A stretch of DNA of 63,281 nt from Girardia tigrina. Taxonomy: Eukaryota. A program made the position numbers and the translations under genes. The first letter of the stretch is position 1; the number at the start of each line of letters is the position of its first letter. The DNA is taken from positions 1-63,281 of the forward strand of contig MQRK01168095.1 of assembly GCA_001938485.1 (NCBI GenBank), read 5' to 3'. Positions 25,277 through 63,020 of this stretch are shown in pieces. Below the pieces are notes generated by a model. The model saw only the letters and a program-made list of their open reading frames with translations. It did no database searches and was not told the DNA's origin.

Positions 25277-25604
25277 CAGTGGTGAGCAATGAAATTTTTA
25301 ACAAGGGGCTCACTCTTTTTTTTCTCGCGAATCATGTGAATTAGTACTCTAACAATGTGTCATTGCGACTGACATATAAAAAAACAAAATTATGGTTTAA
25401 TAATGGTTTATTTCAAACAAAACAAAATAATGAATAATAAAATAAAGAAAAAATCTGACATGTGTAAAAAAAACTTAAATCTTTTAAGGTAGTAAATTTT
25501 CATTTTGAAAAAAATACAAGTATTTACCAAAAAGAACAAGGGGCTCGCAAATCATAGAACCATTTAACAAAGTGCTAACGCGATCCCCTTATATCTCACC
25601 ACTG
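25277..25604. mobile_element. hAT MITE (328 bp)
   Basis: TIR CAGTGGTGAG/CTCACCACTG and exact 8-bp TSD ACTAGGAT. Confidence 0.85.
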
Positions 25605-32166: not shown

Positions 32167-32869
32167 ACTCATTATCTAATAACTTGAAGTTCTTGACATT
32201 CTATTTTAATCAACTTATCCTAGGAAATTCTAAACAGTTTTTTGCTTCCTTAATATTTATTGAAATTAACTTTTGAATTGTAAAGAAAACCAATACATTA
32301 ATTTAAAGTTTTATTAGATAATCAATTTGGATCATTCTTGACACAATCCATAGTAGAACTTTCATTCGTGCATATTCTTATTCAAGATTGTGAGGAATAT
32401 TTTAAATTTTTTGAATGTGTAACTGTTTGGATGCTGTATGTTGATTTAAGTATGTTGAATTTAGAATGGTGATTCTCCCACCCAGATGGAAATTGGTATC
32501 TTTTATTAAATTTAAAGGATTGACTATTCGAACACAATTAAAATAATCATTTGATAAGTTCATATTCTTAATTTCCCAATTAAAATTAAGTTTAATAATT
32601 TTTAGTAAAATTTAAATTAAATGCATTTTTAATAATTGGATGACATTTTTATTATTTTGGGATTTATTGAGAAATTGTAAAAATTATTACTTTTTAATTA
32701 ATATTTTTAGAGGTTAAATATTTTAAAAAATAACTTAGAAAAATTGTTCGAATAATCATGATTAAAAACAGAAATAAGAAAACCAATTAGAACGATGGCA
32801 AACGATGAAAGGGCTTCTGAGAGTTATAATGACTCTAAATGTAATTGCAATAAAAATTCAAATGAGCCT

Positions 32870-36354: not shown

Positions 36355-36450
36355 ACCTTGGAAAAACCTGTGATACAGAAGAGGTATGTAGATGACGTCT
36401 TTCTTTTGTTAAGAAACCAATTCCTGATAAAACCATTCTTTACATTCTTA
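36355..36450 (+). mobile_element. Penelope-like RT fragment
   Basis: EKPVIQKRYVDDVFLL is homologous to KKPLLYKRYVDDIFL in the element at 40200. Confidence 0.55.
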
Positions 36451-37405
36451 AAAAGCCATCTTGATAATAAGCACAACAGACTCGGGAGTAAACAATACAC
36501 TTTATTTTCTTGATATTGGTTGGGTTTCCGAGGAAGATATAGATTTCTTCGAAGACTCAACAAAAATAATTTATTAACTGGTTCACTTTCCGAAGTGGTT
36601 TTTCTAGAAAAGCAGGTCGATGATATTTTTGTTAGAACTTTATGCGTGGTTGAATTTAACTTATGTATCAACCTAAATTATGTAAAATGTGCACTTCTTT
36701 TATATTTTATTTAATTAAACTCAATGAAGAAGAACACAACAAAGTTTGTTTTAAAAGGTTTATTTTTTATTCACAATTTACAAATAGCATCAATATTTAT
36801 ACATACAAGAAAACCTTACAAAAGTTGCCTATTCTATTCAATTTTTGACTGGGGAGTTTCACTCCCCAAGCAGAAAGGTTCACTTTGAAATATGATTTTC
36901 AAATATAGATAAATATATGATTTTAAATTTAACCGATTAAAATTAGATACTTTACTCAAAATTTATTATTACTTTAACGTTATTTTAAGAAATCACTCTC
37001 AAATTAATTTTCCTTGATCCAATTATACAGCGCCTCAATTATTTAGCTCAATGGCTTATCTTCGAAATTTAAATGTCTTCCAAATTCAAATTTGACTCGT
37101 AAGCTCAACTGGTTTGATCAAATGACATCCAATTATCTTCACTTTCTTCGGCAATAAAATAATTGTATCCTCGCATTTATGCTCGCCAATTACCTTTAAA
37201 AAATTTTAAAAATGTGTCTTTGGCTGATTCTACAATCAGCTTTTTATAGTTTTTTCAGTCCTTACGGACTTTAATTTTAAACTTAATCTTTGATTCTTGA
37301 AGAATCAACTATTTTTCAGATTTTGAATTACTTTGGCCTGCAGGACTTGAACATTTATTTAATATTTAAATTTATAATTTTTATTTTTTATAATTTGTTT
37401 AAATA

Positions 37406-38321
37406 CAGTTTTGGCTCAAAAGTTTCTGTCGATGAATAAAACTTTCTAAAATTTGTTCTATGCATTCGCGATTAATGAAATTTTTACAATGTACTCTTCA
37501 GGAGTTTTGTTAACAATATATGTTAAAATTTTCACAATTTGAACAGAATAAAATACTTAATTTGTATGAAATTAAACATTGTTTAAATCTATTACGAATG
37601 TTTTTTTTGTTTTTCTAGTGAGTATTCGTACTGAAAATTCAGTTTTCTCGAGAAGATATTAGAAAAATCATTTATTACAACTGGATGAGAGAACTGTCAA
37701 CTGCCAATAATAATACAGAAATCGACTGCATCCTTGGTGAAGGCACAGTTGGCCTCAGAACAGGCTTCGATTGGGTAGCAAAATTCAATAGTGGAAACTT
37801 TGTCTGTGGGGATGAGCCACGAAGTGGACGGCCGTCATACAATTAACTGTTCTCAAAGAAGATCCGCGAGCTACAACAAGAAAATTACATGGAAAAATTG
37901 AATGTAGCCGTTTTTGAAAAACGGTGAAGACAAATGTCTCATGGGAATATTTATATTCAACACAACAATGCGAGGCCCCACACGGCTACTATCACACAAG
38001 AGAAGATTATTCAGTTTCGTCCCCACATTCTTGAACATCCACCATATGCGCCTTGGTCCCTTTTTCGACCAATTAAATCTGCCTTGCAAGAAAAGGATTA
38101 CGCCAGTTCAACTGCTGTAATGCACGATATTCAACAATGGGCTGACTCAAAACTGCAGCAATTCTTCAAAGGATGGTATCAACAAGTTACCGGTGAGGTG
38201 GCAACAATGCACTGAGCATGATGATGAATATTTCGAAAACTTATTTGACGTTGATGATTAAATACTTTGTTTATATTCATTTGTTATTGAAATTTCGGCA
38301 GAAACTTTTGAGCCAAACCTG
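37406..38321 (+). mobile_element. Internally deleted mariner element
   Basis: TIR CAG[G/T]TTTGGCTCAAAAGTTTCTG[C/T]CGA with TA TSDs. Motifs WVAKFNSGNF..GDEPRSGRP and HNNARPHTA...LEHPPYAP. Confidence 0.9.
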
Positions 38322-39487: not shown

Positions 39488-41220
39488 GATTATGTTCTTT
39501 TTTATTGCTTTTATATAAGAAATGAATCATTATGCAATCACTTACGTAAGTCTAATCGAAAACTCTTAACAAATTAGTTGAGAGTGCTGTTTGAACATTG
39601 ATTTTAGGATCACATGATCTTATCAACAATGCTTCACATGACACTCTCTCCCAATAATTTTTAAAATGCTTGCACAAAATCTTAAAATCATTTATGCTCA
39701 TATTACATTTACACGTTTTTTTATGCTCAGCAATATTACTCTTTCCCACTTTTTGACTGTGTTCTTGGACTCGTTTGCAGAGATGACGTGCAGTCTCTCC
39801 GATGTATGTGGCATTGAACCCATTACATGTGTATTGATAAACAATGTCCGAACACAATCCTAAATGAGTATGTGATTTATTGCAAAACATATTCTCAACT
39901 TTAAATGATTGAGAAATAATTTTTTTTGATGTATCGAGTCTATTTACTAATGTTCCGTTACAAGAAACCATCGAATTATGTTGTGAACTGTGGCGTAAGA
40001 ATAATCTGGACAGTTCTGATTTAGATGAAGTTGCTTTTCGAAAACTCTTAACATTTGCTACTTCAAATGTCCATTTTTTATTTAATGGTGAATGGTACAA
40101 ACAAATAGATGGGGTTGAAATGGGTTCACCATTGGCTCCGACGTTAGCCTGTATATTTCTTTCTTCCATTGAAGAAAAAATAGAATTGTTTTTGGGGAAA
40201 AAACCACTACTTTATAAGAGATATGTGGATGATATCTTTCTAGTCTATGAATCTCGAGAACATGTGTTTCCTTTTCTAGATTACATGAATTCGATTCATC
40301 CAAATATAATCTTTACAGAAGAACAGGAAATAAACGGAAAATTACCATTCCTTGATTTGTTAATTGAAAGGAAAAATGATCATTATGAAACTGAAATATA
40401 TCAAAAGAAAACTGATACTGGTTTGTACACCTCCATAAACAGCTTTTGTGAGTTTAAATATAAAAGGAATATGATCAAAGGTGTGTTATACCACTCTTGG
40501 TCTCTTTCTTCAACGTTTTCAAAATCTATTAAAAGTATTGATACATTGAGCAAGTTATTGAATAATAACGGTTACTCTAAGTCCATCATAGACAGACTCA
40601 CTCGTGAGACTGTAGATAAAATAATCGAATAAAAAAAATCAAAAATGAAAAAAATAATAGTTTAAACATTGAAAACTGCTTTACACCTGGGTATACTCTA
40701 AGCTTACCTTACTCCGAGGGTTTTAAACACCTCAAGAATTCGATCTTGAAATCAACAGATAACATTTTAAATTTAAAAATTATTTCTCAATCATTTAAAG
40801 TTGAGAATATGTTTTGCAATAGATCACATACTCATTTAGGATTGTGTTCGGACATTGTTTATCAATACACATGTAATGGGTGCAATGCCACATACATCGG
40901 AGAGACTGCCCGTCATCTCTGCAAACGAGTCCAAGAACACANNNNNNNNNNNNNNNNNNNNNNNNNNNNNNNNNNNNNNNNNNNNNNNNNNNNNNNNNNN
41001 NNNNNNNNNNNNNNNNNNNNNNNNNNNNNNNNNNNNNNNNNNNNNNNNNNNNNNNNNNNNNNNNNNNNNNNNNNNNNNNNNNNNNNNNNNNNNNNNNNNN
41101 NNNNNNNNNNNNNNNNNNNNNNNNNNNNNNNNNNNNNNNNNNNNNNNNNNNNNNNNNNNNNNGTAAGTGATTGCATAATGATTCATTTCTTATATAAAAG
41201 CAATAAAAAAGAACATAATC

Positions 41221-41264
41221 AGTGATCTGATGATGACGGTTAAACCGTCGAAATATATTATCCT
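41221..41264 (+). ncRNA. Minimal type I hammerhead ribozyme
   Basis: AGUGAU-CUGAUGA-U-GACGG(UUAAA)CCGUC-GAAA-UAUAUU-AUCCU. Confidence 0.8.
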
Positions 41265-42545: not shown

Positions 42546-44698
42546 ATGTCAAAATTTCTTGAAAATGATAATCAAACTACCAATAAAAGTGAAAAAAACT
42601 TTTTCCTAAAATACAATTCAAGAATATTTAATTATCGCTAATAATAATAAAATAATTCCCAAATAATTTCTTGTCCAAAATTGTAGAAATAAAATCGATT
42701 GTTTTAATTTTATCTTACAAATTTGGCGTCATTCAAATTGCAACTATGGTATTCGATTTGACTTGAAATATCGTGATAAAACCCGATATAGTTTCAGGAA
42801 AACGCTTCCAATATCGACATAATAATCATTCCAGGTGAATGAAAGATAAAAAATGACAACAGTAATGATTAATTAAAAAAACGTATTCTTTTCAAGGCAA
42901 CCCGGGTATTAGAGAATATTACAATGATTTTATCGATTGTTTAAGTAAAGAATTGAAATCGCATGATAAAACATATCGTATTTTCGTAAACGCGCATCTC
43001 GGTCACGATGAAACCGTTTATGGTTATTATTGATTTATCTGAATCGATGAAATTATAACAGAATAAAAACAACGCCAGTTTACATATAACACAAAATTGC
43101 GGGAAAATTAATTATGAAAAACGATATTGCCATTCAGAAAAAAATTAATTGTTGCCGTATATTTCGATGGATTTTCTATCATCTGCAGACTTAATTAACA
43201 CAATTTCGCTGTTGTAAATGTACACTCGTTATCGATTATCGATTAAATTACCATGGACACATTTAATTTGTGATTATTATGAATTAATTTGTGATTATTT
43301 ATTAATTAATTTGTGATTATTTATGAATTAATTTGTGATTATTTATGAATTAATTTGTGATTATTTATGAATTAATTTGTGATTATTTATGANNNNNNNN
43401 NNNNNNNNNNNNNNNNNNNNNNNNNNNNNNNNNNNNNNNNNNAATTAATTTGTGATTATTTATTAATTAATTTGTGATTATTTATTAATTAATTTGTGAT
43501 TATTTATTAATTAATTTGTGATTATTTATGAATTAATTTGTGATTATTATTAATTAATTTGTGATTATTTATTAATTAATTTGTGATTATTTATGAATTA
43601 ATTTGTGATTATTATTAATTAATTTGTGATTATTTATGAATTAATTTGTGATTATGAATTATTTTGTGATTATTTATGAATTAATTTGTGATTATTTATT
43701 AATTAATTTGTGATTATTTATGAATTAATTTGTGATTATTATTAATTAATTTGTGATTATTTATTAATTAATTTGTGATTATTTATTAATTAATTTTTGA
43801 TTATTTATTAATTAATTTGTGATTATTTTAAAGTATTTATGTATTACTTTGTTAACCTCTTCAAATATTTATAAATATATATTTATAATCTTTAAACATA
43901 TTTTAAAGTGGCGTTGTTTTTGTGTTCCAAAAAATGTGAATTATTTTTGAATTTATTAAAAAAGATTAAAAATCGATCAATTTAGACCGAACGTTTTCTC
44001 TCAACGACCAAATCGATTATCATCGTAATAAAATCACCCGATCGATCGAATCCAATAATAGGAAGCTCATTCTCATCGGTCATTCTATCGGTTGTTACAT
44101 CATCCTTCAATTAATGCGACATAAATCGATCAAAGCGAATCTTATTCAGTCAATTTTACTTTTTCCGACAATCGATCGAATAGGTGAATCTCCGAACGGA
44201 CGATTCTTTCGGCGTTTCGTTCATTCATCGTTCTTTCGTTGGTTGATTTATGCCGCCGTGTTTATGCTTGTGCTTTTGACGACCGCGCGAATTCGCCGAT
44301 TGATCATCGGAAAGTTCTTCCGGGCAGATATCGATTCATCGATTGTTATTGCAACCGAGATTTTGTTAAGGCCCGCCACTATTCGACAGGTGTTGTTCAT
44401 GGCGCACACCGAGCTCGAGCAAGTCGGACGGTTGAGTGAGACAGATAAGGACACGCTCGGTGAGTTTGCGGATCGTGCAATAATTTATTACGGTTGCCAT
44501 GACAACTGGTGTGTGAATGAAGCGTGTGGGGATATGCGCGACCTTTGTCATCGACGTGATTGGCCATTGACAATGGTCCGATTGGATGAGGAGGGAATGA
44601 AACATGCATTTGTTATTGACGATAGTCACAAGATGGCGGAGATTTGTGCTGAGTTTGTGTCTGTGCAGATGAATGAATCGATATTGATCGGTTATTGA
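42546..44698 (+). CDS. LDAH: Lipid droplet-associated hydrolase (alpha/beta hydrolase); exons 42546-42588, 42687-42748, 42798-42834, 42897-43022, 43986-44698
   Basis: Spliced frame gives IIPGNPGIREYYNDF, HLGH, FSLNDQI, LIGHSIGCY, LLFPTIDRIGESPNG, YYGCHDNW and HAFV. All introns are GT-AG with matching phase. The first two exons are less certain. Confidence 0.85.
43263..43828. repeat. 22-bp intronic minisatellite (TTAATTTGTGATTATTTAT[G/T]AA)n
   Basis: Direct tandem units spanning a small gap in the last LDAH intron. Confidence 0.95.
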
Positions 44699-44916: not shown

Positions 44917-47900
44917 GGGAGCATCCATTAAGGACGTCATATAAAAAATAAGCATATTTTGACCCCTCCTTTTGTCCCTTTATGTCCCTTTTCATGAGAC
45001 ACCCCCTCCCCGGGGGACATCCCCCCGAAAACAAATTTCCCTTATATTCAGATGAATGTATAGAACATTGAATTTCTGGCTTTAAAGATTAGCTTGTATA
45101 TAATTTTATTTCGGCTGTAATTTAAGTCACATTAAAAAATAGAATAAAATAATCAAATACTGTTAAAATAATGAAAATGTACATAATTCCTAAAGAAAAA
45201 ATAAATGACTTAATTATTATAAAAGAAAAAATCGAAAATTATTAATTTTTTTTCTTATTTATCTCGATTCCAGTTCCGATAATTAGCAGCGCCAAAGACA
45301 TCAATCATTGTGAAATTTGGGCAACGTTTGTTCAAAAATTAAATATAACATGACTGTCTTAAACTAAACAAAAAACTAAACAGCCAAAGATAAAACATTG
45401 TCTTTTAATTATTAGTACATTACTGCAGTCAGTTTATAAAAGTTACTCATCCTCCCATGGTGATTTGAAAATATCAAAGATATTTCTGTAGACAGCTGGG
45501 GACCCAGATGAACTGCTATGGCTCTCGGTAGTCTCCGGACATTCAGTTTCTGTTTCATCGTCAACATCTGATAGTTTTCCTTGACAAGTGTCTGAACATC
45601 CACCATTACGATGATGCATGATGGCAGCATGCGAGGGCATATAGATTTGGCAGGAATTGCAAACCTTTGATGCAATGTACTTTGGTGTTAAACTTGAACA
45701 GTACGAATCATATGGCATTTCACCTTTGTAACTTTTGCTGGATGCTGGCTTTACTTTAATTGTTAGCCTCTGCCAAAGTTGCATAAATTTATCTCCTGTC
45801 TTGACATCGCTAGGATCTGGAATATATGGCCCACTGGAAGTAGTTTTGACTGGAAATGATGCTGATAGAAAACGATTTGGAAATGCCTCTAACCAGTTTG
45901 ATCGCATCTTGCTGCAACATTTGACAGATTGGCATTTCACAATCATAAGCATATACTGAGAAATTCGACAGAGACGTATAATCCATCCTTCATCAACATC
46001 CTCAACGCTCAACGTTGCATTCTCTACATATTCTGCCTCAACAGGATGACCTTCTAGAGTCATGTTCCTCCAAATTTCAGATAGCACTTCACCTGCTTTT
46101 TTAAAGTTTTGTTTCTCCAAATTTTCATCAATTATACATCCTGTGGCATTCAGATGGTTACCATTTGAGTCGTGGGGAAGAATGATGCCGACAAGTTCTT
46201 TGCTGAGAGGTGCCATTCGTCTTTCAACATAGTTGAATGCCGATAAACCTGGAGCATGTGTCATTGTGATATAAACGTCAAGATTGTATTTTTTAAATTG
46301 GTGAACAGCCACTGCCAACGTTTTTGGAAATCTCGGATTCTCATCTGGTCCTCCATCTACAAACGTCATAAAAATTGGTTTAACAACGCCATTGTTCTTT
46401 GCAACCTATTGGAAGGATTTCAATTCAAGAAGGTATTCCGCATCTCTCCCATGAGTGAAAGAAGTACTGCCATCGTGTTTCGCACTTCTAATAGCTATGT
46501 ATAATGGCCCGGAATAATAAATTTCTAATGATGCATATTCACTTGGTGCTTTGATGATGCTGGCTGCATATACTGATGAAGTAAGCTTGTGTCTGCCCGC
46601 AATGACAAAATCATGATCAGGAAGGCGAACTTCGTATTCAAGACACATGAGAATTGGTGCCTGTTTACTTGCCTGCTGCAAGGCCAAGTGGAACCTTGGC
46701 TTTGTCATCTATGGAAAGAACAAAGACTGCTGATGGTCCAAACAAGGCGGCAATTGCTTTCAAATATTCCATTGTTGCAAACGTGAAATCAGCATCAACA
46801 AGTTTTTTGTGACTGTTTTCAGGGCGTCTCAGCTTCACTGGAACGACATTCACGTGTTTCTTTCCTTCATTTGAGTCGATCCTACGTGGAATTAGAGGTA
46901 AATATAGAGCTGATCTGCTCAATATATAATTCATTTTTCGAAGTTCAGAAACTAGGTGCAGCAAGCATTGAGAATTTCAATGCGTCGCTTCCTGTCAACT
47001 CCAGCACCATGAGTAACAAGAGAGATTATGGCATTATGTAAATCAGATTGAGTTTTTTCCAATGAAGGACGGCCAGTTCTATCTCGTGCAAATTTCTTGA
47101 GTTGTGGGTTCGAATCTGACAAATTTTTCATAGTTTCTCTTAATGCAGCTCGTCTTTTTATTTTTTATATGCATCTTTTTGTAATATAATTAATCGTTTT
47201 TCATCTTCACTCAGGCATTCTTTTGCTTTCTTCAGTTGAATAAAATTATCATTTTTTGCCAATCCAGATTCTTTCAGATCCTGAAGTTTCAGAATTAGAC
47301 TTTTTTGCTTTGCAATTTTCGTATTCAAATTGTCCTGTGCATATTTAATTGTTTCTTTTTTTCTTCGTTCAAAATATTTATTTCATTTGTTTTCGGCTGA
47401 TTAACCTCTGCAACCATTGTTTTAGAGTCTGTTTGTGATTCTTGTTTAATATTTGGTCCTTCAGTATCACTTAGTGTGTCTTTTACTTTTTTGAAAGTCC
47501 TGTCCAAAAAAGACAAGATTGAGCTTCATTTCGTTTTTTCAGATCTTGCAACTCCAACAGTTTTGCTTGATAGGCATCTGAACTATTTTTAATTTTTTCC
47601 ATTCGTCATTTGCATCTCTTTGTTGCTTTGCTTTGTTGATGCATTGGTATGCAGAACAATAAAGTTTGTAAAATGTTTGATAGTCAGCCGTAGGTATTTA
47701 TTACAATTAAAATAATTAATAATAATTTTGAATTGAAATTCAATACCAATGAAAATAGTAAATATTGTAACAGTAGATGAAACGTTATAATACAAAACAA
47801 AAATAGCTGAAGCCAAAAATCTCAAAAATGAAATCGCAAATTAATTTACTATTTTTCATCTAAGAATTAATATTATGTTTTATTCCAAGCTTAGTATTAA

Positions 47901-48410
47901 ACAGTCTTGATATTGATAGACACTTCTTAGATGCTGTCAGATTGATTACAGACTGCAGCAGATAGAGCTGAACACTACTGTGCTGTCAGGTTCAAGAAGT
48001 ATGTAGGTCAATGTGATAACGTACTAAGTATACATTTACTGTGGGCTAGAAGGATTAGTGAATGAGTGCTGCTATCCAGTGAATGAGTGCGGCTGCAGAT
48101 GGTATTTTCACATCCTCAGTATTCTAATAATAAAGGGATGTAGAGTTGTAGGTGGCTGCAACTCTGCTAAGAGAATTGGGAAAATAGAATTTAGATAACA
48201 GGGGTTTTGAGTATTACATCAATCTCTAACAGAAAATCTTACAAAAATGACAAGATAAACGATAGCTGAAATTTAACTTTAGATTTTAACGAAAGGCGCT
48301 GCTGGGGGATGTTCCCTTAACAATTGAACCCCCTCCCTATTGTCCCCAAATGTCCCCCTCGTCGTGACCCCCTCCCCCCTTAGAAGGGGACGTCCTTAAT
48401 GGATGCTCCC
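44917..48410 (-). mobile_element. Near full-length Zator DNA transposon with frameshifted transposase
   Basis: Perfect 22-bp TIR GGGAGCATCCATTAAGGACGTC with flanks TAA/GAA (TWA-type TSD). Motifs SIDDKAKVPLG, LPDHDF, VDGGPDENPRF and APGLSAFNYVERRM lie in ORFs 46665-46964, 46406-46708 and 45443-46369. Confidence 0.85.
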
Positions 48411-48799
48411 GAAGGTATTAATTTTTTAAGGTGTTAATTTTTGGTTGTCAAGTTTAGTTCTATATATTTCAAAGCCAAAGTTTATTGATACTCTATCAAT
48501 ACAAATTTTTGTATGGGAAAAATAAAAAGTAAAAATTATTTTAATCTTTATTGAATTAAAAAACTGCCAAAATTTTGTTTATTAAAACAAAATTGTTGAT
48601 TGAATTTCTTTTATTGCGTTTTTTGTTTAACATTTATTTTCAGCCCCTGGTTGCGAGGATTAACCAGATGGGGGACATAGAAAAATACTAATTAGATTTA
48701 AAAAAACATATATTAAAGAAAAATCATATATCAAATTCCGCCGGGTGGTATGAAGTAAATTAATTTACAATTTAAATTAAATTAAAATTTAATGTTGAA

Positions 48800-49966
48800 A
48801 TTACGTGCACTACACAAATATTTATGTTATTCATCAACGTATGTACACATATTATCGACACATTTTTGCCAATTGAGATGAAACTTGTTGAGGTCATTTG
48901 AATATAAATGTGGAATAAAAATCTATAAATTTTTCTATCAAAATTTTTTTAAAAAAGTGATTTCTCTTTTTTTTCGTCTTTTTGTTAAGTTATAGTATAG
49001 AGATTGTAAGAAAGATTTTCAATCTCCCCAACTTAACATTTACATTAAAAACATTAATGTTAAAAATAATATTAATTTTTAATGAATTTGTGTATTAAAT
49101 GAATCTTGTAATTTATGTTTTTATTTTGATCATTTTTTTAGTTTGTTTTAATACACAATTTGATAAATAATAAAAATTTTTAAAATTGGATTTCATTTCG
49201 TCATTTTTGTCTACTATATGGAATAATGCGATTTTTTTTCTGAAATTCGTGACCGTGCTCAAACAGCCGTTGATTGTTCAAAAATCTGGGCGAACTTCTC
49301 CCGTTATTACCACTCAGATTGAGGTAACACCTCAGGAAACATTTAAAAATTTTTCACTAACATTTCCTACAACTCCACCACAAGTTGTCTAGTACAGATG
49401 GAGCCTTGGATCCGCCGATCACAACAACCGGTGACAATACTAGAATCCATCGATCTCGGGGTTACCCAGTTTGAAATAATGTCCGGGAGACTTCATTGGA
49501 CCCATCTTTCACCAATCAAGCCTAATATGATTCAATATTAGTTGCTTTGTAACAGCAAATGTTAATGATTAACCATGAGCATTTTGGGAGGGATCCGAAA
49601 TCAAGGTTACCTTTATTTGTTCATTGTCTACCTATGTTCCTGATTGACCCAGAGACTCATTATTGAGGTTAAAATTATCTTTCACAAATTTTCTGAACTA
49701 ATTTGAGACTTTTTGCTGCGTAGTAGCATTGTATCCGAATATGCTATTGGCTTTTCTCATTTTTTTCTGATGTTGACATTCCACGTAGGAACTCTTACTT
49801 AATTAAAACAATTAAATAATTTTAATTAATTTTTGTTGATGTGTTTAAGAGTCAAGATAAGTAGCAATGAAACAAAAAAACGGAGAACCAAAATGTTAAG
49901 TCTGTCAAATTATAACATTTTGAATTTATTGTAATCATACCTACAAATCCATGCCTGACAACCTAA
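48800..49966 (-). mobile_element. Decayed mariner, same family as 9526-10690, interrupted
   Basis: Terminus TTAGGTTGTCAGGCATG at 49966 with TA. N-terminus homologous to 10340-10630. C-terminal WQKCVDN near 48860. Confidence 0.7.
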
Positions 49967-50289
49967 TAATAATTTCCTTTTTAATATTCGTTACTCTGAT
50001 TTATTTCACTGAATATTTCTGTTGAGGGGCAACAGTATAAGTAGCAATCCGATTATTTTTCTAAATCATCTGAAAGCAGTGCTCTCAATTGATAACCTCT
50101 ATAATATCTTTTTTAATGCTACTCTCAAAATCATTTTATTTTTCATTTGATAGTAATCAATAATATTTGATTATACCGCTTTTGATAATTCTTTCTTATA
50201 AGACTTCTTTTCAGTTAGCTGTTTGATAATTTTATTACCTTTTTAAAGTATGATTTCTTGATCATAATCACCTTAGTGATATGGTCACG

Positions 50290-50495
50290 GTTGCTATGGA
50301 TACGGTAACCGTTACCATGGTTACAACCACCTCGAATCACTGTATCAGTTGCTAATGAAAAACGCTCTAAGTTACCGTTGCTATGGGAACCGAAACCGTT
50401 GCTAAGGAACCGGGAACCAATTAGAAGTGTTCTCAAGGTACCGGGGACCAATGAGAACCGTTGCTATGGTAACCGGACTCGTTTTCCATGGCAAC
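50290..50495. promoter_or_regulatory. Cluster of RFX X-box-like motifs with two CCAAT boxes
   Basis: GTTGCTATGGATAC (50290), GTTACCATGGTTAC (50311), GTTGCTATGGGAAC (50377), GTTGCTAAGGAAC (50398), GTTGCTATGGTAAC (50460) and GTTTTCCATGGCAAC (50481), with weaker copies at 50348 and 50429. CCAAT at 50417 and 50448. Confidence 0.6.
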
Positions 50496-50609
50496 GGGCT
50501 CCCCCCGGGAGGTGTGGGAGGAATGCCCATTTTTCCCCTACTGTCTCGACTAAACACGAGTGCTTTTTCAGAATTGCTCATCAGATGGCGATTGTCTCCT
50601 ATTAAATAA

Positions 50610-51922
50610 ATCTGTGATGACTTTAATTTAACTATTAGAGTTCGTACCAAGAAAGCTGAATAAAGCAGATGAACTGACGAGAATTCCGAAGGAGCTGACT
50701 AAAAGCGTATGCGGTGTCGCTTTGGTGAGTGAAATTGAAAGACTGAACGATCTTCATTTGAAGTGCACTTAGGAGTAAAAAGAATGAAGTTCCTTTGCAA
50801 AATTGAAAATATTAATGTCACAGATAAAGATATTTCGAACATGATTGCGAAGTGCCAGAAATACCAGTCAATTGATCCTGTACCGGTTAGATGGGATCTT
50901 GGTGGTTTATCTGTTAGGGAGACCTGGCAAAGATTAGCAATATATGTAACCAAATTCAATGGAGATAAATATTTAAGCTTCATCGATTGCGGACCATCCA
51001 GGTTTGTGATATGGAAAGAAATTCGGGATGAAAGTTCGCTTTCTATCACCGCGGCAGTAAGTTCTGTGTTTTTGGAGTGGGTAGCGCCCAGAGAACTGAT
51101 TGTGGATAATTATACGACTTTTTATTCAAACGATTTTATAGAACTTTGCAACGGTTGGAGAGTCGAGGTAATTTATTGAGCAATCAACCGACCAAGCGGG
51201 AACGGAGTCGTGGAAAGAAGTCATCGCACGATTAAACGAATTGCTACGAGATCGAATATCACAATAGGAGAAGCAGTTTGGTGGTACAACAATACTCCGT
51301 CGAGTGGTAAGGAACCACCGAGTTGGATGATTTATAATTATAGGTGTATGAAACCGGTTTATGGCGAAAGCGACAATAAGTTCGAGGTGAGGAAGAAAGG
51401 TGCGAAGTACTGTGATCATCAGTTAGTTTGGGTGAAACCAATGGGTAGTACAAGTTGCACACAGCAATGGTTAAAAGGCCAGATTTTGAAAGAACTTTCG
51501 AACTGTAAATATTTAGTGGAATGCAATGGATCGAGTTTCCCTCGGCATGTCGGTGATTTACGGCCGAGGAGAGTTGAGCCGGAGAAGGTTATTGAAAAAT
51601 CTGTATCTTGGGAAGAGGAATTCGAAGTTGATGATTCAAGGAGTATTGGCATGAAATGCCTGCAGAGAAGATTCAAATATTTAGAGAATTACGTGGTTGA
51701 TGAAGATTCTTGTTCTGATGAATCTGGTGGGCATGTTGTAGAGTTAATTAATTTATTTTTAGATAATTGTTCAGTATTTTAATTGACGAACAAAGCACGC
51801 GTTTTAAAAAGTGAAAAGTTGGAGAAAGTTTGAAGAGCAACTGAACGGGACGATTTGATAGAACAGTGTTCGTAATAAATTGTATCGTGATTCGTTTTGT
51901 ATTCAGTCTTGTCGTCACTACA
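50610..51922 (+). mobile_element. Gypsy element 3' part: RNase H end, integrase, PPT, LTR (51734-51922)
   Basis: NKADELTR, HLG...C, WQRLAI.VT, IDCGPSRF, IVDN and GNGVVERSHRTIKR motifs. TCTGGTGGGCA precedes a TG...CA LTR containing AATAAA. Confidence 0.9.
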
Positions 51923-52195
51923 CTTAATTTAATTTCGCGACGGTTACTAAAAATATTAATTGTTTGGGATAGTTTGCATTTTAATTTGCATCAATCAAGA
52001 ATACATTTACATTAAACATCTATAATTTTAGTCATACCTTACTAACGTTTAGTCAGTATGTATTTATTATGGGTATGCATCAGCTAATCATTTGAATTAT
52101 TGATTTACAAGCAAGACTATTTTACTTTTTTACATCCATTCTTATTTATTTATGGCACAAAGGTATTTATATATGACAAATATATGTATTAATTA

Positions 52196-53333
52196 TCGAT
52201 ACTGTCGTTCTCATTTAATACCGTGATATTGTCATTAATTAGCAAGTTATATAATACTGTCTTTCCCGTTTAATAAAAGAATAATGTCATTGATTAAAAA
52301 AAATCTTCTAATCAATGACTTAATTATTGATTATTTTTAATGAAATTTTATGGAAGGTATTTCGATAATGATATCAGTAGATTTTCGAGAAAATAAACTG
52401 TTTTTAAAGTAATCGACGATCGTGAAATAACCGAAAGAATGATGAAGAATAGCAAACAGAAACAATACATCAGTGTCATTCAAATAATATAAAACTACAT
52501 ATTAAAAATGATACGACGTTGGAGTCTAAAAACGTAATTTAATCCTATGCAACATATCGAAAACCCATGTCTTTCAAGACTGGTTGAATTTAACAATCAA
52601 TCTTCTCTACGAATAACCGTGTCTCGATATTGGACGATATTTTAAGATCATTTCAAAAAAGGACTAATCATTATTACGTTATTTCGTTTGAAATGAAAAC
52701 GATTCTTTAGTGTCAAAACTCGATTACATTTGAAAAAAATCGTCTTTCTTCGTTATTTCGAATAATTTTTGTGGAGCTTTTTTGTAAAACTTATTCTTGT
52801 AATAAATAAATTGATTTTTTATAGTTTTTTATGAGATTTTTGATTTTTTTTGTAAATTTAAGTATTTTCAATAAATCTGTAATGTCTTGATATTTTTGAC
52901 GTTTTTTTTGAAAAATTAAATGAAAAAATTAAACTTAATTATTCTTTTATTGAATGAAATTTCTTTTAAACATTGGAACACGAAGTTTTATATGATTCGT
53001 TAATTTTTTTAGTGTGTAATGTTATGTCTTCATGTACTAAAAATTTTTGCTAATTAATGGAGCGCTTGCTAATGAATGCAAATAAATTATGTGTGCNNNN
53101 NNNNNNNNNNNNNNNNNNNNNNNNNNNNNNNNNNNNNNNNNNNNNNNNNNNNNNNNNNNNNNNNNTGTGTCCTTATATAAAATTTGCAAATGAAAGCAAC
53201 GATGGCTATTCAATGCAAATCTTTGTGATTTTATCCAATTGGAATTAGGTCAGTCTATTTTTAGGTAAGCTTTATTATATAACTTGCTAATTAATGACAA
53301 TATCACGGTATTAAATGAGAACGACAGTATCGA
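52196..53333. repeat. 1.1-kb segment bounded by perfect 61-bp inverted repeats
   Basis: 52196-52256 is the exact reverse complement of 53273-53333. ATTA flanks both ends. Confidence 0.85.
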
Positions 53334-55519
53334 ATTAAATCTGTAATTATATAAATTGAAAATATGGCAAAAGAATGAAGCAACAGCGTTCTCGATTTCT
53401 CGCTCTGCATAATGCATAAATGCAAACTGGGACGCTCTCTCAAATGCAATTTAGATTCCGAGATTTCCGATGATTACGACAAAAACATTCATCAAAAACA
53501 TTGACTACATAAAGAAGTCAGGCAGTATCAACTCGGATTTAGGTGCATCGAAACCGCACCTCATTAATCCCTACAGAATCGTGTCGGAATTTCCTCGCGG
53601 AATCCACTTTGACTCGTTAGAGAGACTTTGGAGTTTGGTGTTTGGGGTGCCAGATATTGGCGAGTCGCATTTGGATTTTAAAATACCTATTTGGTAAAGG
53701 AAAAGATCACGTTTTGAAGTTTTGTTCAAAGAAACACATCTATGTTAATATTAAATAAAATTTGAGGAATATTTGCTTTTTATTGTATGATTTTGTTTAT
53801 TTTATATATAAAGATCTTATGTATAAATTTAATAATCTTAGAAAAACAATAAGGAGTATTCCTTGACCATCAGAATTGGATTATAGAAAATATGTGTGAT
53901 TTACTGTCTACTGATCCTATGGACCTTGAAACACTTGAAGTTAAATCAAAAAGTAGGGGATAAGTATAGAATTCTAAAGAATATTTTTATGCTTATGAAA
54001 CCGATGTAATGAAGCATTTTCAGATAAATTTCCATTTCGTCTTATCATTCGTGCACATCACGTTCTAGTGACAGATTGGCAATAGCTTAGGGATAATATT
54101 TCCCACATCCATTTTTGATGCAGTAATCTTTAAGCTACTCGTATCTGGCTATTTTGCGTTATTTTTTTAAAATTTACTTTTTCTAGTTATTTTTTAAAAT
54201 ATGAGAGCTGTCATAAGCAAATGCTTATGAATATATTTTAATGCTCCGAAATTATGTTTGTATGCTGGTGTGTATGATGTTTTGACAATGCATTGTAGGT
54301 ATGTATTGCCAATGTATGCCTTTTTTGTTTGTGCAATTTATTTTTATATTTTTTGACATTTACAAATGATGTATGATCTATATAAATGCATACAAGGTCG
54401 ATTCTAATTGGTAACTTTATTTTTTTTAATTTTAAATATATTTTAATATATATGAATATATCCAAATGCCGACACGGCATATTTAATCGAGAACAGGTGT
54501 ACTATATTTCCTTAGTTTTTGATCTCGTGATTGTAAAATCAGCAGTTAAAAAACATTATTATAAAATAGTGTTATTGCGTTATAATCACGGAAATCTCCT
54601 GTGAAAATGACGAAGAATTTCAGAGACTTGATATTTTAGTTGACCTAATAACCTTTTGAAATTTTTTATTCGTATGAATTTTTCGTACAAAAATCAATTT
54701 TTAAATTGTAAAATTCTTCGATCTAATATTTTTATTTAAATCTTGTTGGTCTCCAAATCCATATATTTACGTACAGAATGTGGAGAACATGCGGATAAGT
54801 ACTAAACAAAATGTTAGGCATCGATTCGGAATATCACATGACATTTTCTCGACGTATTTACATGATTTTGTTAGGCAGAACTCCATAAAGATCAAAGGGT
54901 TTGATTTTTAATTATTTTACGAAAGATGCTTATGACATTTAACTATTAATATTTGTATCTTGTATTACAAATTGAAACTGAGTTATTTGAATTTTACATG
55001 AATTCAAATGAATGTACGTAGATGTAAACTCGTCAATTGTAATAATATAGTAACTTAATATTAGTGTTACGTGATCAATGCATTTTAAATAAATACAAAT
55101 ATTACTTTTAGTAATATACTAAAGTAAATTTTTAATACATTCGAAATACACATTTAGTATTTTATTAATTTTTGTAGTGTTAATTTCTCTCACCAGTTTC
55201 TTCTCTGATCTATCCACTATTTGGATTTTTTTTGAGCCTATATTTGTTTTTATTTATTTTGTATATTTTTTTGGTGATGTTGTATTTAGTTTTGTGTGTG
55301 TATAGTGGTTTTCGTTCATGGTGTGTGATTCGCTTGTCGTTGTGTTTTTTTTGTTTTCGAACTCACCATCTCCTGAGAAAGAAATTATGAGATTCGAACG
55401 AATAAAAACGGGTCTAGATTATAAGCTTATTGAGAGAAACGGTCGACGCTCTAATAGCAAGTATAATAGTTCTTACTAACAGAATCAATTTTATACTTCA
55501 CAAAGACACTGATAAAAAA

Positions 55520-55780
55520 CCAATTTTTTATGTACCGTATAACTGAGAGGGTAATTCGTATAAACGTTATTGAAGCTACATCACTGAAAGCTATGGATAT
55601 TCGTATATTTGAATCAAATACATCAGATCCTTATATTATTGTTAGAGTTGGCGTTGAAAAATTTAAAAAAAAACAAAAGTTATTCACAGTAGTATAAATC
55701 CTAAACGGATTGAAACATTTGAAATTATTGTTGATTCCAATTCGTGTCAAAAAAGGTCGAGTTAAAAATTTATGTCAAAT
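55520..55780 (+). pseudogene. Extended synaptotagmin-like C2A domain fragment, frameshifted
   Basis: VIRINVIEATSLKAMDI...SDPYIIVRVG.EKFK / TKVIHSSINPKRIETFEIIV, with a frameshift in an A9 run and the conserved W replaced by R. Confidence 0.6.
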
Positions 55781-56199
55781 CCAAGAATAATTAACTAAAT
55801 AAAAAATCAATGAAAATAATTAATGATTACATTTTTTAAATTATATATATCTAATTACCGTTTATGGCTTTTGTACAGACTTTTCAACAATGAATAAATT
55901 TTTGTTAGTTACCCCGGTTATTTTTATTTTGTTTTATTTACATCTATTTGTTATTTTTTTATAGTTAAACGTTAATAACTTGTTAATTCCTTTTTTATTT
56001 ATCAGTAAAAGTAAATATTCGACAATACTCGAATATTTATTTTTACAATTTTTATAGATAAATAAAAGAACCATTTATTGTTGTAAGTACTGATTGTCTC
56101 GAGCCGATTTGGGTTATTGACTGGGCACGACTTGTAGAAAAAAATGAAGCCAATACGAGTTCCATTTACAGCTCGACTCGGCTGGGCTTGAGTCAATTC

Positions 56200-56454
56200 G
56201 TGTGTACAAATTTATGTATGAACACATTTTTATTTATTTATGTACAAATTGGTTTCAATCTTATGCTTTTTAGTTTATAGTTTCAGGATACAGCATCTTG
56301 TATCTGATCGATGTAAAATGTGACAATTGTGTCAGTGCACAAGCAAATTATTTTGAGAAATGACGCATATTTACCATGCTTTTTCTAAATACATTGTTGT
56401 GTTGATATTTTAAGTCTTTCTATATTAGTCTCACGACTTATTGGACACACCACG
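56200..56454 (-). mobile_element. Mariner-like terminus fragment
   Basis: TA-CGTGGTGTGTCCAATAAGTCGTGAGAC terminus. No partner TIR seen. Confidence 0.45.
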
Positions 56455-57413
56455 TATTTTATTTTTTGAAATTTCGCGAATGATAAATTTTACTAAAAAT
56501 GTCATTAATAATTGTAATTCACCGCAAATTTGAAAATAAAAATAAAAAAAATTTATTTTAATACATTTTCATTTCCAAAGTAAAAACAGAGCAAACAGTA
56601 AATATAAAAGAATTATTTTTGTAAAGTTACTTTTGACTAAATTGTTTGCTCTAAACGCTAAACACACTTAATCTATTAGAGTTTTTGTTATCAAGATCTT
56701 CCGGGTAACCTTCAAATGCGTATTCTAAAGGTTGATCAAGATTTAGATCATCATTGTTTAAATCATAAAATTCTTTTCTATTGTCTAGATCTTGTTTAAT
56801 ATCATTTGGAATAACTGTAACTATAAAGAATTAAATCAAAAATATTAAAAAGCATTAATAAATTTAAATTTGAAAATCTAATATTAAAAGTGTTGAGTTA
56901 CTGTTCCGTCGACGACCACCTTTTCATTAAAACGTTTTCTTTTACTAAACACTTTTAGAGATATGTTTAAAAATTGCATTTAAATAAATTAATACATTTA
57001 AAACTACACTATTTCAATTTCATTTCGTTAAAAAATAAAATAGTCATTTCATTACGAAATTGTACCAACGGAAAAGATCATATATGAATCTTTTCGACAT
57101 AATGCTTCGATTTCTTATTCATCGTCAAATAAAATCGACAGTCGAGACAATTCCAAGTCAATAATATTATTCGACAGTCAATTCCTGATCAATCTCGATC
57201 ATCGTTCCTACAGGAGGCAACACGAATCATTCGCAAATCAATAATAATTTTAAAAAATATTTGAAAGTCTTCTTTGATACATTATTGATTAAATGACATA
57301 ATTCTTTAATTAATGTCCAAACAATAATAATAATTATAATTTATATTATTATTTTTGAAAAGCTTATGGCGCATGTTCCGGATTGATTGATATATACATA
57401 TATAATCTTTAAT

Positions 57414-57481: not shown

Positions 57482-58398
57482 NNNNNNNNNNNNNNNNNNN
57501 NNNNNNNNNNNNNNNNNNNNNNNNNNNNNNNNNNNNNNNNNNNNNNNNNNNNNNNNNNNNNNNNNNNNNNNNNNNNNNNNNNNNNNNNNNNNNNNNNNNN
57601 NNNNNNNNNNNNNNNNNNNNNNNNNNNNNNNNNNNNNNNNNNNNNNNNNNNNNNNNNNNNNNNNNNNNNNNNNNNNNNNNNNNNNNNNNNNNNNNNNNNN
57701 NNNNNNNNNNNNNNNNNNNNNNNNNNNNNNNNNNNNNNNNNNNNNNNNNNNNNNNNNNNNNNNNNNNNNNNNNNNNNNNNNNNNNNNNNNNNNNNNNNNN
57801 NNNNNNNNNNNNNNNNNNNNNNNNNNNNNNNNNNNNNNNNNNNNNNNNNNNNNNNNNNNNNNNNNNNNNNNNNNNNNNNNNNNNNNNNNNNNNNNNNNNN
57901 NNNNNNNNNNNNNNNNNNNNNNNNNNNNNNNNNNNNNNNNNNNNNNNNNNNNNNNNNNNNNNNNNNNNNNNNNNNNNNNNNNNNNNNNNNNNNNNNNNNN
58001 NNNNNNNNNNNNNNNNNNNNNNNNNNNNNNNNNNNNNNNNNNNNNNNNNNNNNNNNNNNNNNNNNNNNNNNNNNNNNNNNNNNNNNNNNNNNNNNNNNNN
58101 NNNNNNNNNNNNNNNNNNNNNNNNNNNNNNNNNNNNNNNNNNNNNNNNNNNNNNNNNNNNNNNNNNNNNNNNNNNNNNNNNNNNNNNNNNNNNNNNNNNN
58201 NNNNNNNNNNNNNNNNNNNNNNNNNNNNNNNNNNNNNNNNNNNNNNNNNNNNNNNNNNNNNNNNNNNNNNNNNNNNNNNNNNNNNNNNNNNNNNNNNNNN
58301 NNNNNNNNNNNNNNNNNNNNNNNNNNNNNNNNNNNNNNNNNNNNNNNNNNNNNNNNNNNNNNNNNNNNNNNNNAGTGTACTTGCGTAGTGTAATTTGT

Positions 58399-58439
58399 GA
58401 CCTGATGATGGGATTTTTATTATCTCGAAACGCGTCGTC
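58399..58439 (+). ncRNA. Minimal type I hammerhead ribozyme (second sequence family)
   Basis: GAC-CUGAUGA-U-GGGAU(UUUUAUU)AUCUC-GAAA-CGC-GUC-GUC: intact core, palindromic ACGCGU helix III, GUC triplet, helix I GAC/GUC. Confidence 0.85.
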
Positions 58440-59466
58440 TTGTTTTTATCCCTATTATATAGATTTTACTTTGCAATGTATATATATATGTTTATAAATG
58501 TAAATTGATTTAGTACAAAAAAGTTGCTTGAGTTGATTTCTGGAAAATATTGTTATTGTTGTTTTAATAATCAAAAATTAACGAAATCGAATTTGAATTT
58601 GGAGAAATCAGTGTATTGCTTTTGTGAAAATTCAAAATAAAAATTGTGTTAAGGATTTTTTATCAAAACGATATTCGTCTTTCAATTGATTAAATTAATT
58701 TCTAATTCTCCGATTTCTAATTATTAGTAAATCTGTCGTCAAAGACATTTACGAATTTATTCAGAATCAAAATAAGCAAATTTCCGTGAAATTCAGTTTC
58801 CCTTATGGGACAAAACATCTCTCGAATGCCTCTTTGATTTATGGGGAGCGCAAATCGGATGAGACGAAATTCGCTTTAAAATCAGAGAATCGCATTGTTG
58901 AGGCGAGAATCGTTTTGTACATGACAGAAGACCAAAATGTCTTTCGGATCGATACACTCAACAACAGCGCATTCTTCAAACATGTTCGTATTGATAAAAT
59001 ATAACTATATTCTAAAACTTAGCACTTTTTTAATTTTAGAATCGCCTCACTTGAGTTTAGGTTTTTTGTATGTCCGTAAAATAGTAAAAAATTTGTAGAA
59101 AGTTAAATTTTATTACGAAAACAATCAAATAAATATCAAAACCAGGAAAGTTTCATGGAACAAGAAGTCGATAACTATTCATTCATCATTGTTACTGTTG
59201 GCTTGTTCAAGGTACTGTGAAACTATATGCAACCGGGAATGGGAGTTCCTGGGAAATTAATGTTTAGGATTTTCATTTCCCATTCCTAATCCCGGAAAAC
59301 GTATTTTTAAAATTTCATAAAATTTCACAATATAGTTTAACTATTTTTTTAGCTTAATAATGTATTATTTTTATTATTTTTTACTAACTATTCAAAAATA
59401 AATCACAAATTTTAAAAACAGAATTCCAGTTCTCGGGAATTCAATTTTAAAATTTCCATTCCATTA

Positions 59467-59777
59467 TGTTGGTACATTATCAATGATCCTGGTGTGAAGT
59501 GTCACTTCTCGTCTTCTGAAACAATCCCGGGAAACGATAATCACGACGATATGATATAAATGGGCTTAATGGCCATGTTAGTTTCAACAGTGTCGTTTAT
59601 TGCAAGTCTAAACCACACGGTGAGATAGTCATTTTGAGCATCCCTTGACTCGGACGACGGCCCCCGACGCCATTGTGCCTCGACCGTGCTGCGTCCACGT
59701 CTTTGTAATCAACAAATATTGTAAAATTATTGTATAAAAAAATAAAAACCAAATTTTTTAAGTATTGTTAATTTACA
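59467..59777 (+). mobile_element. Possible solo LTR
   Basis: TGTTGG start, TATAAAT, GC-rich middle, AATAAA and TACA end. No clean TSD. Confidence 0.35.
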
Positions 59778-60011
59778 TTAATTTACTTCCAATTTTACAA
59801 TTTATAAATCAAAATACCATTTGATTTGATTGGTTTCGGCAAACTACCATTCTTCAATATTGCGAAATTAATTGGTGGTCCTTTGTAATCTTCTTCTCCT
59901 GATCAAGAAATTTTATAATAAAAAATCGTAATTATATTTTATTATTGAATAATAAAACGAAAATTTAGAAACGTATATTAATAAATCTTTCATTTGCTAC
60001 TATAAAAATAC

Positions 60012-60446
60012 TGTGAGGAATATATGAATGTTTGATGTTTTGTGTTTGAATGTGTATGTTGATTTGGAATTGTGTCTCTCCTACCCAGATGGATGATTAA
60101 TATTTGAATTCTTATTATCTAAAAATATGTAATGTTTAAATTTAAATTTCATATAATTTTAAAATTTTAAATAAGTTAATTATTTTTTATAATATTTAAT
60201 AAATAAATCAAATTAATATTTTTTAAATAATTAATTATAATTTTAATTATTATCCAATTAGTTTTGAGTCAATATTTTATTTAAATATTTATTTCCCCAT
60301 TTTCTAAAAAAAGTAATGAGAATTAAACCATTAATCAATTTCGCTTTGAATGCAAATGTACGAAAGTTTTGACAAAGATTGTCTTGAGGACAATCAAAAT
60401 TGTTGTTTAAATAAAAATATAAAAAATCAAATTGGTGTTCTTAATT
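60012..60446 (+). mobile_element. Solo LTR of the TGTGAGG family
   Basis: Homologous to 5703-6143. Exact 5-bp TSD AATAC. Confidence 0.8.
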
Positions 60447-61015
60447 AATACAAACAGTTATTTGTCAATATCCCAATTTGTTATTGTAGTCACTTTGATC
60501 TATAATTAAAATGATCTAATAAAGTAAGCTAAATAACGCAAATACGGCGCTTTTTAAAAATGTATATTTATATCACATTCTATTTATTTAAACAAATATA
60601 TTTAATTTTAATTATTGAATTTTAATGCAATATAAAAATTAATCTATATTTGTTCGATATAAAATTTAGGCATTAGGATTATGTCTATACTTATAAATTA
60701 TGATAAGATATTTTTCAAATTTATCTTTATAAATTACATCAATATTTGAATTCATTATAAGCGCAATAATAATATTTTATTATACACAAATTTAAACTAA
60801 TTTTCAACTTCTTTATTTTAATTATTAATTTTATTGATTCCTACTACTTATGTAATATTTTATTTATCCTTATAAAAAATTTACATTTTAAAACGTTACA
60901 AACTGTTTTAAATATTGATATTAAATCATTTTGAAAAATTACAAATGTTGTGCTTCAGAAATTTCCGTTGCTAAAAACTATTAAAAAAACTATGAAAAAA
61001 TTAATGAATTTATAA

Positions 61016-63020
61016 TGTCATGTGAGGCATTAATAATTAAAGCAGTTAATATAGCAATTATTGTTCAATAAAGTGACTCATCAACTTTATTGAAAGTTTT
61101 TGCTGAAACAGTAACAGTAAGTTAAAATGATGATTACATAATCGACTATGTAGTTACTGTTTCACGCAAAAACTTTCAATAAAGTCGATGAGTCACTTTA
61201 TTGAACAATAATTGCTGGATTAACAGCTTTAATTATTAATGCCTTATACGACACTCTTTCCCAATATTTTTTAAAATTGCTGCATAATACTTAAATGTTT
61301 TATTTCAACCGACGATTTACAATGTTGTTTGCGTTCAGCAATATTACTACTACCACTTAGATGTCCATTCTCACAAACCCTTGACAGAGATGACGGACTG
61401 TCTCTGCAATGTATGTGGCGCTGCACCCATTACACTTAAATTTATACACAAGATCCGAGCATAAACTCAAATGAGTTTTTGATTTATTACTGAACATATT
61501 CTGAATTTTATATGTTTTTGATACAATTTTTAAATTTAAATTCATAGTATTAATTAATCTTAGAATAGAAGATTTGAATTTTTTAAAACCTTCAGAATAA
61601 GGAATAGTTAATGTGTAGCGGCAATTAAGTCTCTCATTCATTCCTATGTCGGGTTTCAAATCATCCTTTCCTTCAATTATTTTACTTGCACCATCTTTAA
61701 ATAATTTATCAATTGTTTCTCTAATTAATTTTCAAAGAAAAATTTCGAATATCAATTCTTATGTAAATGGTCACTCAACTTATTTAAACTTGAATTTACC
61801 TTGGGATATGTTGAAGACAAAGACCAAGAATGAAACACCAACCCTTTAATCATGTTACGATTATATTTGAGTTCACCAAAACTTTTGGGAGTTGTATACA
61901 ACCCCGTATCAGTTTTCTTTCTATATATATCTGTTCCATAATGACAACCCTTTCTTTCAATTAACAGATCAAGAAAAGATAACGAACAATTCTTTTCAGT
62001 CTCGACAGGGAAAGAAATATTGGAATGTAAGGAATTCTAATATTCCAAAAAAGGAGACATGTGATCTTTCTCAGAAAAAAATAGAAAAATGTCATCAACA
62101 TAACACTTAGAGATTAAAGGTTTAGCTCCAGTGAAAAGATTGATCTTACCTTCAGTTCTATACAGGAAAATCGAAGCAAGTGTTGTTGCTAATGGTGATC
62201 CCATGCCGCACCATCAATTTGTTTATACCAACAATCTCTGAAAATAAAATGAACATATGATGTTGCCAAAATCAATAATTCCCGAAAGGCTACTTTATCT
62301 AAATCTTTATGAAGATTTACATTATTTTTCCAGATTTCACAGCAATTGTTGATAGTCTCAGATAAAGCAACGTTCGTAAATAAACTCTCAATATCAAAAG
62401 AAACCATAAATTCATTTCTATTATTACTTGAAGGACAATTAGCAATGAATTCAGTAAATTCAAAGCTGTCACGACATTCAAATTCAAAAGAAAACAACTT
62501 TTTCAATTTATGATCCATAAACTTCGCAACATTACATTGAGACGTGTGGATCATAGATAAGACATGTCTCATTGGGATACCCTCCTTGTGAATTTTAGGT
62601 AATCCATAAAGTTTCGCCGGCTGAGAGCCTATTGGACGCAAGTCTTTTATTAAGTTTTGGTAGTAGTAATATTGCTGACCATAAAAAAAACATTGTAAAT
62701 CGTCGGTTGAAATAAATAATTTTAAAGTTTTATGCAGCAATTTTAAAAATTATTGGGAAAGAGTGTCGTGTGAGGCATTAATAATTAAAGCGGTTAATCT
62801 AGCAATTATTGTTCGATCAAGTGACTCATCAACTTTATTGAATGTTTTTACGTGAAACAGTAATTACATAACCGTTTGAATAATCGTCATTATAACATAT
62901 TTATATATGTTTCAAATCATTCTTAACAGCTACAATCAGAATCACCTTATGATGACGGATAATCCATCGAAATAAATTGCTCTAATAAAAAATGGTAATT
63001 TAAGATGGCGTCTTCTAATA
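61016..63020 (-). mobile_element. Penelope-like element (family B) with inverted segments at both ends
   Basis: Minus-strand RT (LYGLPKIHK, SFDIESLFTNV, YKQIDG) and GIY-YIG (LVYKFKCNGCSATYIAET). Plus-strand endonuclease end and pseudo-LTR at ~62658-63020 and again at 61016-61115. Confidence 0.9.
62941..62980 (+). ncRNA. Degenerate, likely inactive hammerhead motif in PLE family B pseudo-LTR
   Basis: CUUAUGA-U-GACGG(AUAAU)CCAUC-GAAA at the same relative position as in family A, with core G5->U and a stem II mismatch. Confidence 0.45.

Follow-up and report, generated by a model that had tools for sequence, protein, structure and literature searches.

This locus raises the question of where a tight array of X-box-like palindromes (candidate RFX sites) came from, and what it might once have done, in DNA crowded with transposon fragments. 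The window, by which is meant the whole stretch of 63,281 nucleotides that was analysed, is AT-rich (mostly 17-35% GC) and contains eight N gaps. A sequence-only reading had assigned the array to a probable mobile cassette, possibly the 5' end of a Helitron; the mobile-element origin proved plausible, but the Helitron 5' end did not. The features on which the argument depends are collected in Table 1.

Table 1. Position and character of the main features in and around the X-box-like array.
Feature	Position	Strand	Remarks
Second mariner-family copy	10148-10615		
LDAH gene, two exons	near 42869-43030 and 43970-44698	+	PF10230; the one clear host gene
DNA transposon	44917-48410		Perfect 22-bp terminal repeats; broken minus-strand ORF without Pfam match
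Decayed mariner	48434-49972	-	SETMAR transposase HTH match (E 7e-4); imperfect terminal repeats; left-hand neighbour of the block
AT-rich stretch inward of the array	49973-50274		About 300 bases; no confident protein match
X-box-like array	50275-50497		Strong pairs at 50290/50311, 50377/50398 (the latter 13 bp) and 50460/50481 (50481/2); weak sites at 50348 and 50429
Phased core, five sites	50377-50495		Starts 21, 31, 31 and 21 bp apart; symmetric around the weak site at 50429
CCAAT box, copy 1 of the 31-bp unit	50417-50421	+	
CCAAT box, copy 2 of the 31-bp unit	50448-50452	+	Fits the extended NF-Y pattern
GC-rich terminal tract	50496-50542		64% GC
CCTACT at the junction	50537-50542	+	Candidate Maverick end motif; reads AGTAGG inward (minus strand)
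Gypsy, 5'-truncated	50543-51922	+	RNase H end, integrase and purine tract; stops and a frameshift; not part of the cassette
Gypsy LTR-like end	51734-51922		TG...CA, read from the sequence; without X-boxes

The LDAH gene gave 35 protein matches of 24-46% identity, the best named of which were amphibian (about 34% identical). Its intron carries a 22-bp minisatellite (43263-43828), and a near-perfect X-box was seen inside its coding exon at 44493. Two other plus-strand stretches were noted: a C2-domain fragment at 55470-55760 (PF00168, E 1e-4), broken close to a run of A and presumably extended-synaptotagmin-like, and a host-exon-like ORF of 101 codons at 58699-59004, for which none of 34 candidates (query 58732) was a homologue and only weak atlas leads were obtained. 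The transposon between LDAH and the decayed mariner is, by its motifs, taken to be Zator-like. The terminal region of the second mariner copy is apparently interrupted by another element (about 9545-10145), and further mariner pieces were found near 24008-24188 and 37622-37843. The window also holds a minus-strand DDE_1 (pogo-like) element at 6250-7390, whose surviving ORF is preceded by a GC-rich stretch (about 7020-7260); a perfect 114-bp palindrome at 19617-19730, which may be either a fold-back element or an artefact of assembly; and an element at 52196-53333 that has 61-bp perfect inverted ends, contains no recognised coding sequence and spans an N gap. Fragments with reverse transcriptase and GIY-YIG domains lie in an inverted, Penelope-like arrangement at 39555-41262, 1183-1542 and 61016-62914, and pieces 96-98% identical to them occur elsewhere in the window.

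The array of candidate RFX sites is a real, tightly packed cluster. At a threshold of at most two mismatches to an X-box of 13/14 bp, all six strong palindromes that had been described within about 205 bp were recovered; the two weaker ones were confirmed as weak sites, and together the eight span 206 bp. The six strong sites belong to a total of 17 at this threshold in the whole window, and outside the array no 300 bp held more than two. The density exceeded the shuffled background: 1000 dinucleotide shuffles of 50270-50542 gave a mean of 0.17 sites and a maximum of two, against six in the real sequence, although, as the sites are duplicates of each other, this shows non-randomness rather than eight independent sites and overstates the surprise. 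The GC content of the array was 48%, compared with 26% in the left flank, and the GC-rich tract expected after it was also present.

The resemblance of the sites to RFX sites was upheld in part. A perfect GTTRCY half-site was found in seven of the eight, but the strict consensus GTNRCC-N0-3-RGYAAC, as quoted in the available part of PMC3414849, fitted only two (50311 and 50460), both of them strong. The same source, in the part available, describes Drosophila Rfx targets as having one strong and one degenerate half-site. The asymmetry between left and right half-sites in the array (6/48 against 13/48) was not significant (p 0.12). The cores of the units varied less than their flanks (19/96 versus 39/96 differences, p 0.003), a comparison that is circular in that the sites were picked by motif.

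The X-box units form duplicate families of 61-85% identity, with spacers of 13-16 bp, and the unit at 50481 is inverted relative to the others. In the five-site core, the starts correspond to 0, 2, 5, 8 and 10 helical turns and hence to one helical face. The phasing coherence of this core was 0.98, a value matched by 18 of 1000 random placements when the choice of the best window was allowed for; the eight sites taken jointly were not phased (p 0.24). The 31-bp tandem unit, a two-copy repeat of 74% identity starting at 50398 and 50429, was found as described, with a CCAAT box starting 19 bp after each X-box start. Both X-to-CCAAT copies derive from one 31-bp duplication, so the fixed spacing represents a single event. 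CCAAT occurs 129 times in the whole window. The extended NF-Y pattern is RRCCAATSR, and one of the two CCAAT boxes of the array fits it.

On the right, the block meets a 5'-truncated Gypsy element. The abrupt junction that had been placed near 50610 is indeed sharp, but it lies about 65 bp further left, at 50542/50543, and Gypsy homology is sharp from 50544. The ORF of the integrase region, used as a query, had two relatives among 225 candidates, P0036 and P0037, the second of which carries reverse transcriptase, RNase H-like and integrase domains. The first 32 Gypsy codons were identical to P0036 at 29 positions and to P0037 at 26, and the 18 codons upstream of the junction scored negative at all five offsets tried. 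These homologues have lysine immediately before the junction, which allows base 50543 (G) to be assigned to Gypsy; the flank beside the end reads TC and is part of a Gypsy serine codon. The interval 50543-50610 is thus outside the cassette, and AGATGGCG (50583-50590), which had been regarded as a cassette motif, lies in frame within the Gypsy RNase H coding stretch; a role for it as a regulatory motif or primer site was ruled out. The rve match at 50739 is the Gypsy integrase. The array was rejected as a Gypsy LTR, as the LTR-like end of this element has no match to the block. The missing 5' half of Gypsy had no significant match elsewhere in the window (one piece, E 0.59). CCTACT ends at 50542, exactly at the mapped junction, and the hairpins in the GC-rich tract are weak and imperfect (-7 to -9 kcal/mol).

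On the left, the AT-rich stretch between the array and the mariner, which may be either interior sequence of the element or host DNA, was searched for coding remnants. One of its six frames gave no phmmer match over 1.84 billion proteins, and two frames compared with the PDB yielded nothing useful. All six frames were compared with Pfam, and a single HTH-like match was obtained on the minus strand (PF24718, E 0.03, sub-threshold). Four ORFs across the array matched no Pfam family, and no host gene start was recognised adjoining the block. The plus-strand ORF at 49174 was discarded as a coding sequence; it is antisense to the mariner and has no atlas match. No tRNA was found, and no Rfam family matched at its gathering score in the window; the three weak matches in 49900-50700 (E 0.013-0.94) were all far below it. 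A structured RNA was also rejected for the block, since the whole-block DNA fold (z -2.7) is accounted for by the palindromic sites.

The block at 50275-50542 is likely to be the surviving end of a mobile element of some kind. Our main reading, to which a probability of roughly 0.45 is given, is that it is the decayed terminal-repeat remnant of a Maverick/Polinton, carrying an inward-facing RFX/NF-Y-type promoter block and fused to the truncated Gypsy. Vertebrate Mavericks, according to the available part of PMC8097293, end in (AGT)2//(ACT)2, carry terminal inverted repeats (TIRs) 46-1447 bp long and are flanked by target duplications of 6 bp. In the accessible portion of its supplement, AGTAGG appears 37 times, compared with 713 times for AGTAGT; among 30 of these 37 places that were listed, at least 25 are tuatara elements, at least 20 of which end in CCTACT. 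AGTAGG//CCTACT is a family-level variant of the Maverick end motif, and it is this variant that was found at one end of the block, in the form of CCTACT at the junction. An exact match to any of four listed motifs, at either of two offsets, would arise by chance with a probability of about 0.001-0.002, but several transposon end rules were considered first and the true surprise is smaller. The motif is only 6 bp long, was noticed after the fact and, as AGTAGG or CCTACT, occurs 10 times in the window. The candidate TIR length of 270-570 bp is inside the Maverick range, and the block is a GC-rich island with internal repeats. A second AGTAGGGG start was seen at 53952-53967 (+), facing right and resembling the candidate end at 12 of 16 bases; this is probably chance.

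Other observations set bounds on this assignment. The AGTAGG variant is documented in vertebrates, and the host here is probably an invertebrate. No partner end was found in the window, and accordingly neither an inverted pair nor a 6-bp target duplication was seen. There was also no second copy of the block in the 63 kb, which leaves the suggested spread around the genome unsupported so far. A missing partner end is what would be expected if the rest of the element had been deleted, as the 5' half of Gypsy was. No Pfam family corresponding to the Maverick core genes (pPolB, integrase, ATPase, protease and capsid) was detected in 226 ORFs chosen by length, composition and position, or in stop-read-through frames covering about 22 kb (20500-26400, 31420-37300, 48412-50543, 51923-57400 and 58380-61100). 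A plain deletion breakpoint would explain the junction equally well. The block is classed here only as a probable Maverick remnant and not as a Maverick member.

If the Maverick reading is correct, the history would begin with the insertion of a large mobile element, most likely a Maverick/Polinton, into the part of a Gypsy copy that encodes RNase H. The rest of this element and the 5' half of Gypsy would have been lost together in a later deletion, and the mariner and another DNA transposon would then have inserted into the left flank. The block itself may have been assembled through 21- and 31-bp duplications. Its end hexamer would correspond to the integrase/replication terminus, and the order inward from it on the minus strand is a 45-bp GC tract, paired X-boxes, a CCAAT box, a weak X-box, the other CCAAT box, paired X-boxes, a weak site and a further X-box pair, followed by AT-rich DNA. 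Recruitment of host factors is a property of viral terminal repeats, and both RFX and NF-Y have roles in ciliated cells and in the sperm lineage. In the living element, host RFX might have occupied the phased pairs of X-boxes and NF-Y the two CCAAT boxes interspersed among them, on one helix face, and the block could have driven the genes at the end of the element in cells rich in RFX, namely ciliated cells and the sperm lineage. At this locus the element would now be no more than a fossil, with at most incidental consequences for host genes nearby. The broader proposal, of a host Maverick/Polinton family with a functional, helically phased RFX and NF-Y block in its terminal repeats and activated by the ciliogenesis or spermiogenesis programme of the host, is doubtful. 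RFX can also repress, as stated in the available part of PMC13216069, so binding need not mean activation.

The alternative that survives best, which is nevertheless rather unlikely, is that the block is the end of a cut-and-paste DNA transposon, of Tc1/mariner-pogo type (CAGTAG) or hAT type (TAGGG). The 21-bp units would then be subterminal repeats, serving transposase binding or as a transposase promoter, and their X-box likeness would be partly incidental. The end can also be read as CAGTAG, with which the TIRs of lizard Tc1/mariner families start (PMC3014272, in the part available); ACCG occurs 10 times in the block, the sub-threshold HTH-like match lies just inward on the minus strand, and the window is rich in DNA transposons. 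However, CAGTAG families need a TA target, whereas the flank here is the TC of the Gypsy serine codon. No partner TIR was found within three mismatches of 18 bases, relaxing the search to four mismatches of 16 returned AT-rich look-alikes only, and the phmmer and PDB searches of the inward stretch, in the frames given above, lend this transposon no transposase.

Next in order, and unlikely, is that an RFX/NF-Y promoter or enhancer belonging to a ciliary or sperm gene of the host was left stranded among transposon insertions and cut at the Gypsy side by an ordinary deletion. The good half-sites in seven of eight units, the helical phasing, the (circular) excess of flank over core differences and the single copy of the block in the window would all be consistent with this, and the distance from the LDAH stop to the array downstream is about 560 bp once both inserted transposons are discounted. 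Against it, the array has eight X-boxes, compared with the typically single X-box near the start site of Rfx targets in the available text of PMC3414849. A host exon next to the array was not recognised, the closest host-like sequences being the 3' end of LDAH, the C2 fragment at 55470 and the ORF at 58699, and the end hexamer is left unexplained.

A decayed 21-bp minisatellite, with a founding unit that resembled an X-box by chance and no selected protein binding, is improbable. It would account for the sites being duplicates, and hence not independent, and periods of 21 and 31 bp yield phasing automatically; minisatellites are also common in the window. This explanation is at odds with the inversion of one unit (50481), with a half-site that is perfect in seven of eight sites despite variable spacers, and with flanks that diverge more than cores. 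A Helitron end is very improbable: the sole defined end reads AGTAG/CAGTAG inward and not TC after A, which does not support the proposed 5' end under the rule in PMC8969392, and a 3' end on the plus strand (a GC-rich hairpin followed by CTRR), although it would suit the GC-rich tract with a possible imperfect hairpin just before the junction and the fact that Helitrons leave no target duplications (PMC8969392), would have to accommodate weak, imperfect hairpins, CTAC in place of CTRR, a Gypsy reading without an A|T target and no Rep/helicase Pfam match in the ORFs and frames scanned.

The Maverick/Polinton reading was also set against the literature and sequence collections. No paper describing RFX arrays in Maverick ends was found in literature searches, as judged from the search listings. 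X-box words were absent from the supplements of PMC8097293, PMC11414722, PMC8502044, PMC10748475 and PMC11131425, but these texts showed no usable terminal-repeat DNA, and the absence is therefore not informative. The paired-X-box pattern and the end sequence each gave no match in bacterial and archaeal genomes, relatives of the block were absent from phages, and plasmids yielded a single match of 47 bp at chance level; none of these collections is eukaryotic, and they carry little weight. Mavericks encode capsid genes, while particles have not been observed, according to the accessible parts of PMC8097293 and PMC10748475. If true, an RFX/NF-Y terminal block would single out ciliated epithelia and the male germ line as the cells of interest, as well as a host factor. 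Elements for which particles have yet to be observed would thereby gain a concrete cell tropism, and RFX-responsive modules would be dispersed across the genome by orphan ends. Should the block instead prove to be a host promoter or a minisatellite, its interest would be purely local.

Four known systems resemble the block in part. With the TIRs of Mavericks/Polintons (PMC8097293), and specifically the tuatara family, it shares the exact end hexamer at a sharp junction and a length in the TIR range; it differs in having a single end, in that neither a target duplication nor, in the ORFs and frames scanned, a core gene was seen, and in its invertebrate-like host. With the ciliary X-box promoters of Drosophila Rfx/Fd3F targets, as presented in the available part of PMC3414849, the array shares the strong plus degenerate half-site, and two of its sites are strict. 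It has eight sites, however, where those promoters typically have one, it is without an adjacent gene start, and its sites are predicted. The likeness to RFX/NF-Y X-Y modules that the sequence-only reading had drawn was not sustained: the array does share an X-box and a CCAAT box at fixed, helically related spacing with the X1-X2-Y module of MHC class II genes (RFX/CREB/NF-Y), but that module spans 47-49 bp including a CRE site in the part of PMC4381081 available, whereas the unit here spans 24 bp, has no CRE site, owes its spacing to one duplication and has no MHC or CIITA context. The presence of host factor sites in mobile-element terminal regions is already known. NF-Y sites are reported in the ERV-9 LTR and in PERV, and a predicted RFX1 site in the simian Cer-SERV-2 LTR (PMC10968565, available part), and putative factor sites are described in a C. 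elegans Polinton repeat (bioRxiv 2024.01.15.575659, available part). Like these LTR enhancers, the block would be a mobile-element terminal region with host factor sites; those enhancers are retroviral LTRs, whereas here the Gypsy LTR is without the array and the dominant site is that of RFX. If the Maverick/Polinton reading is true, such ends would provide a DNA-virus-like source of ready-made ciliary enhancers beside the LTR examples.
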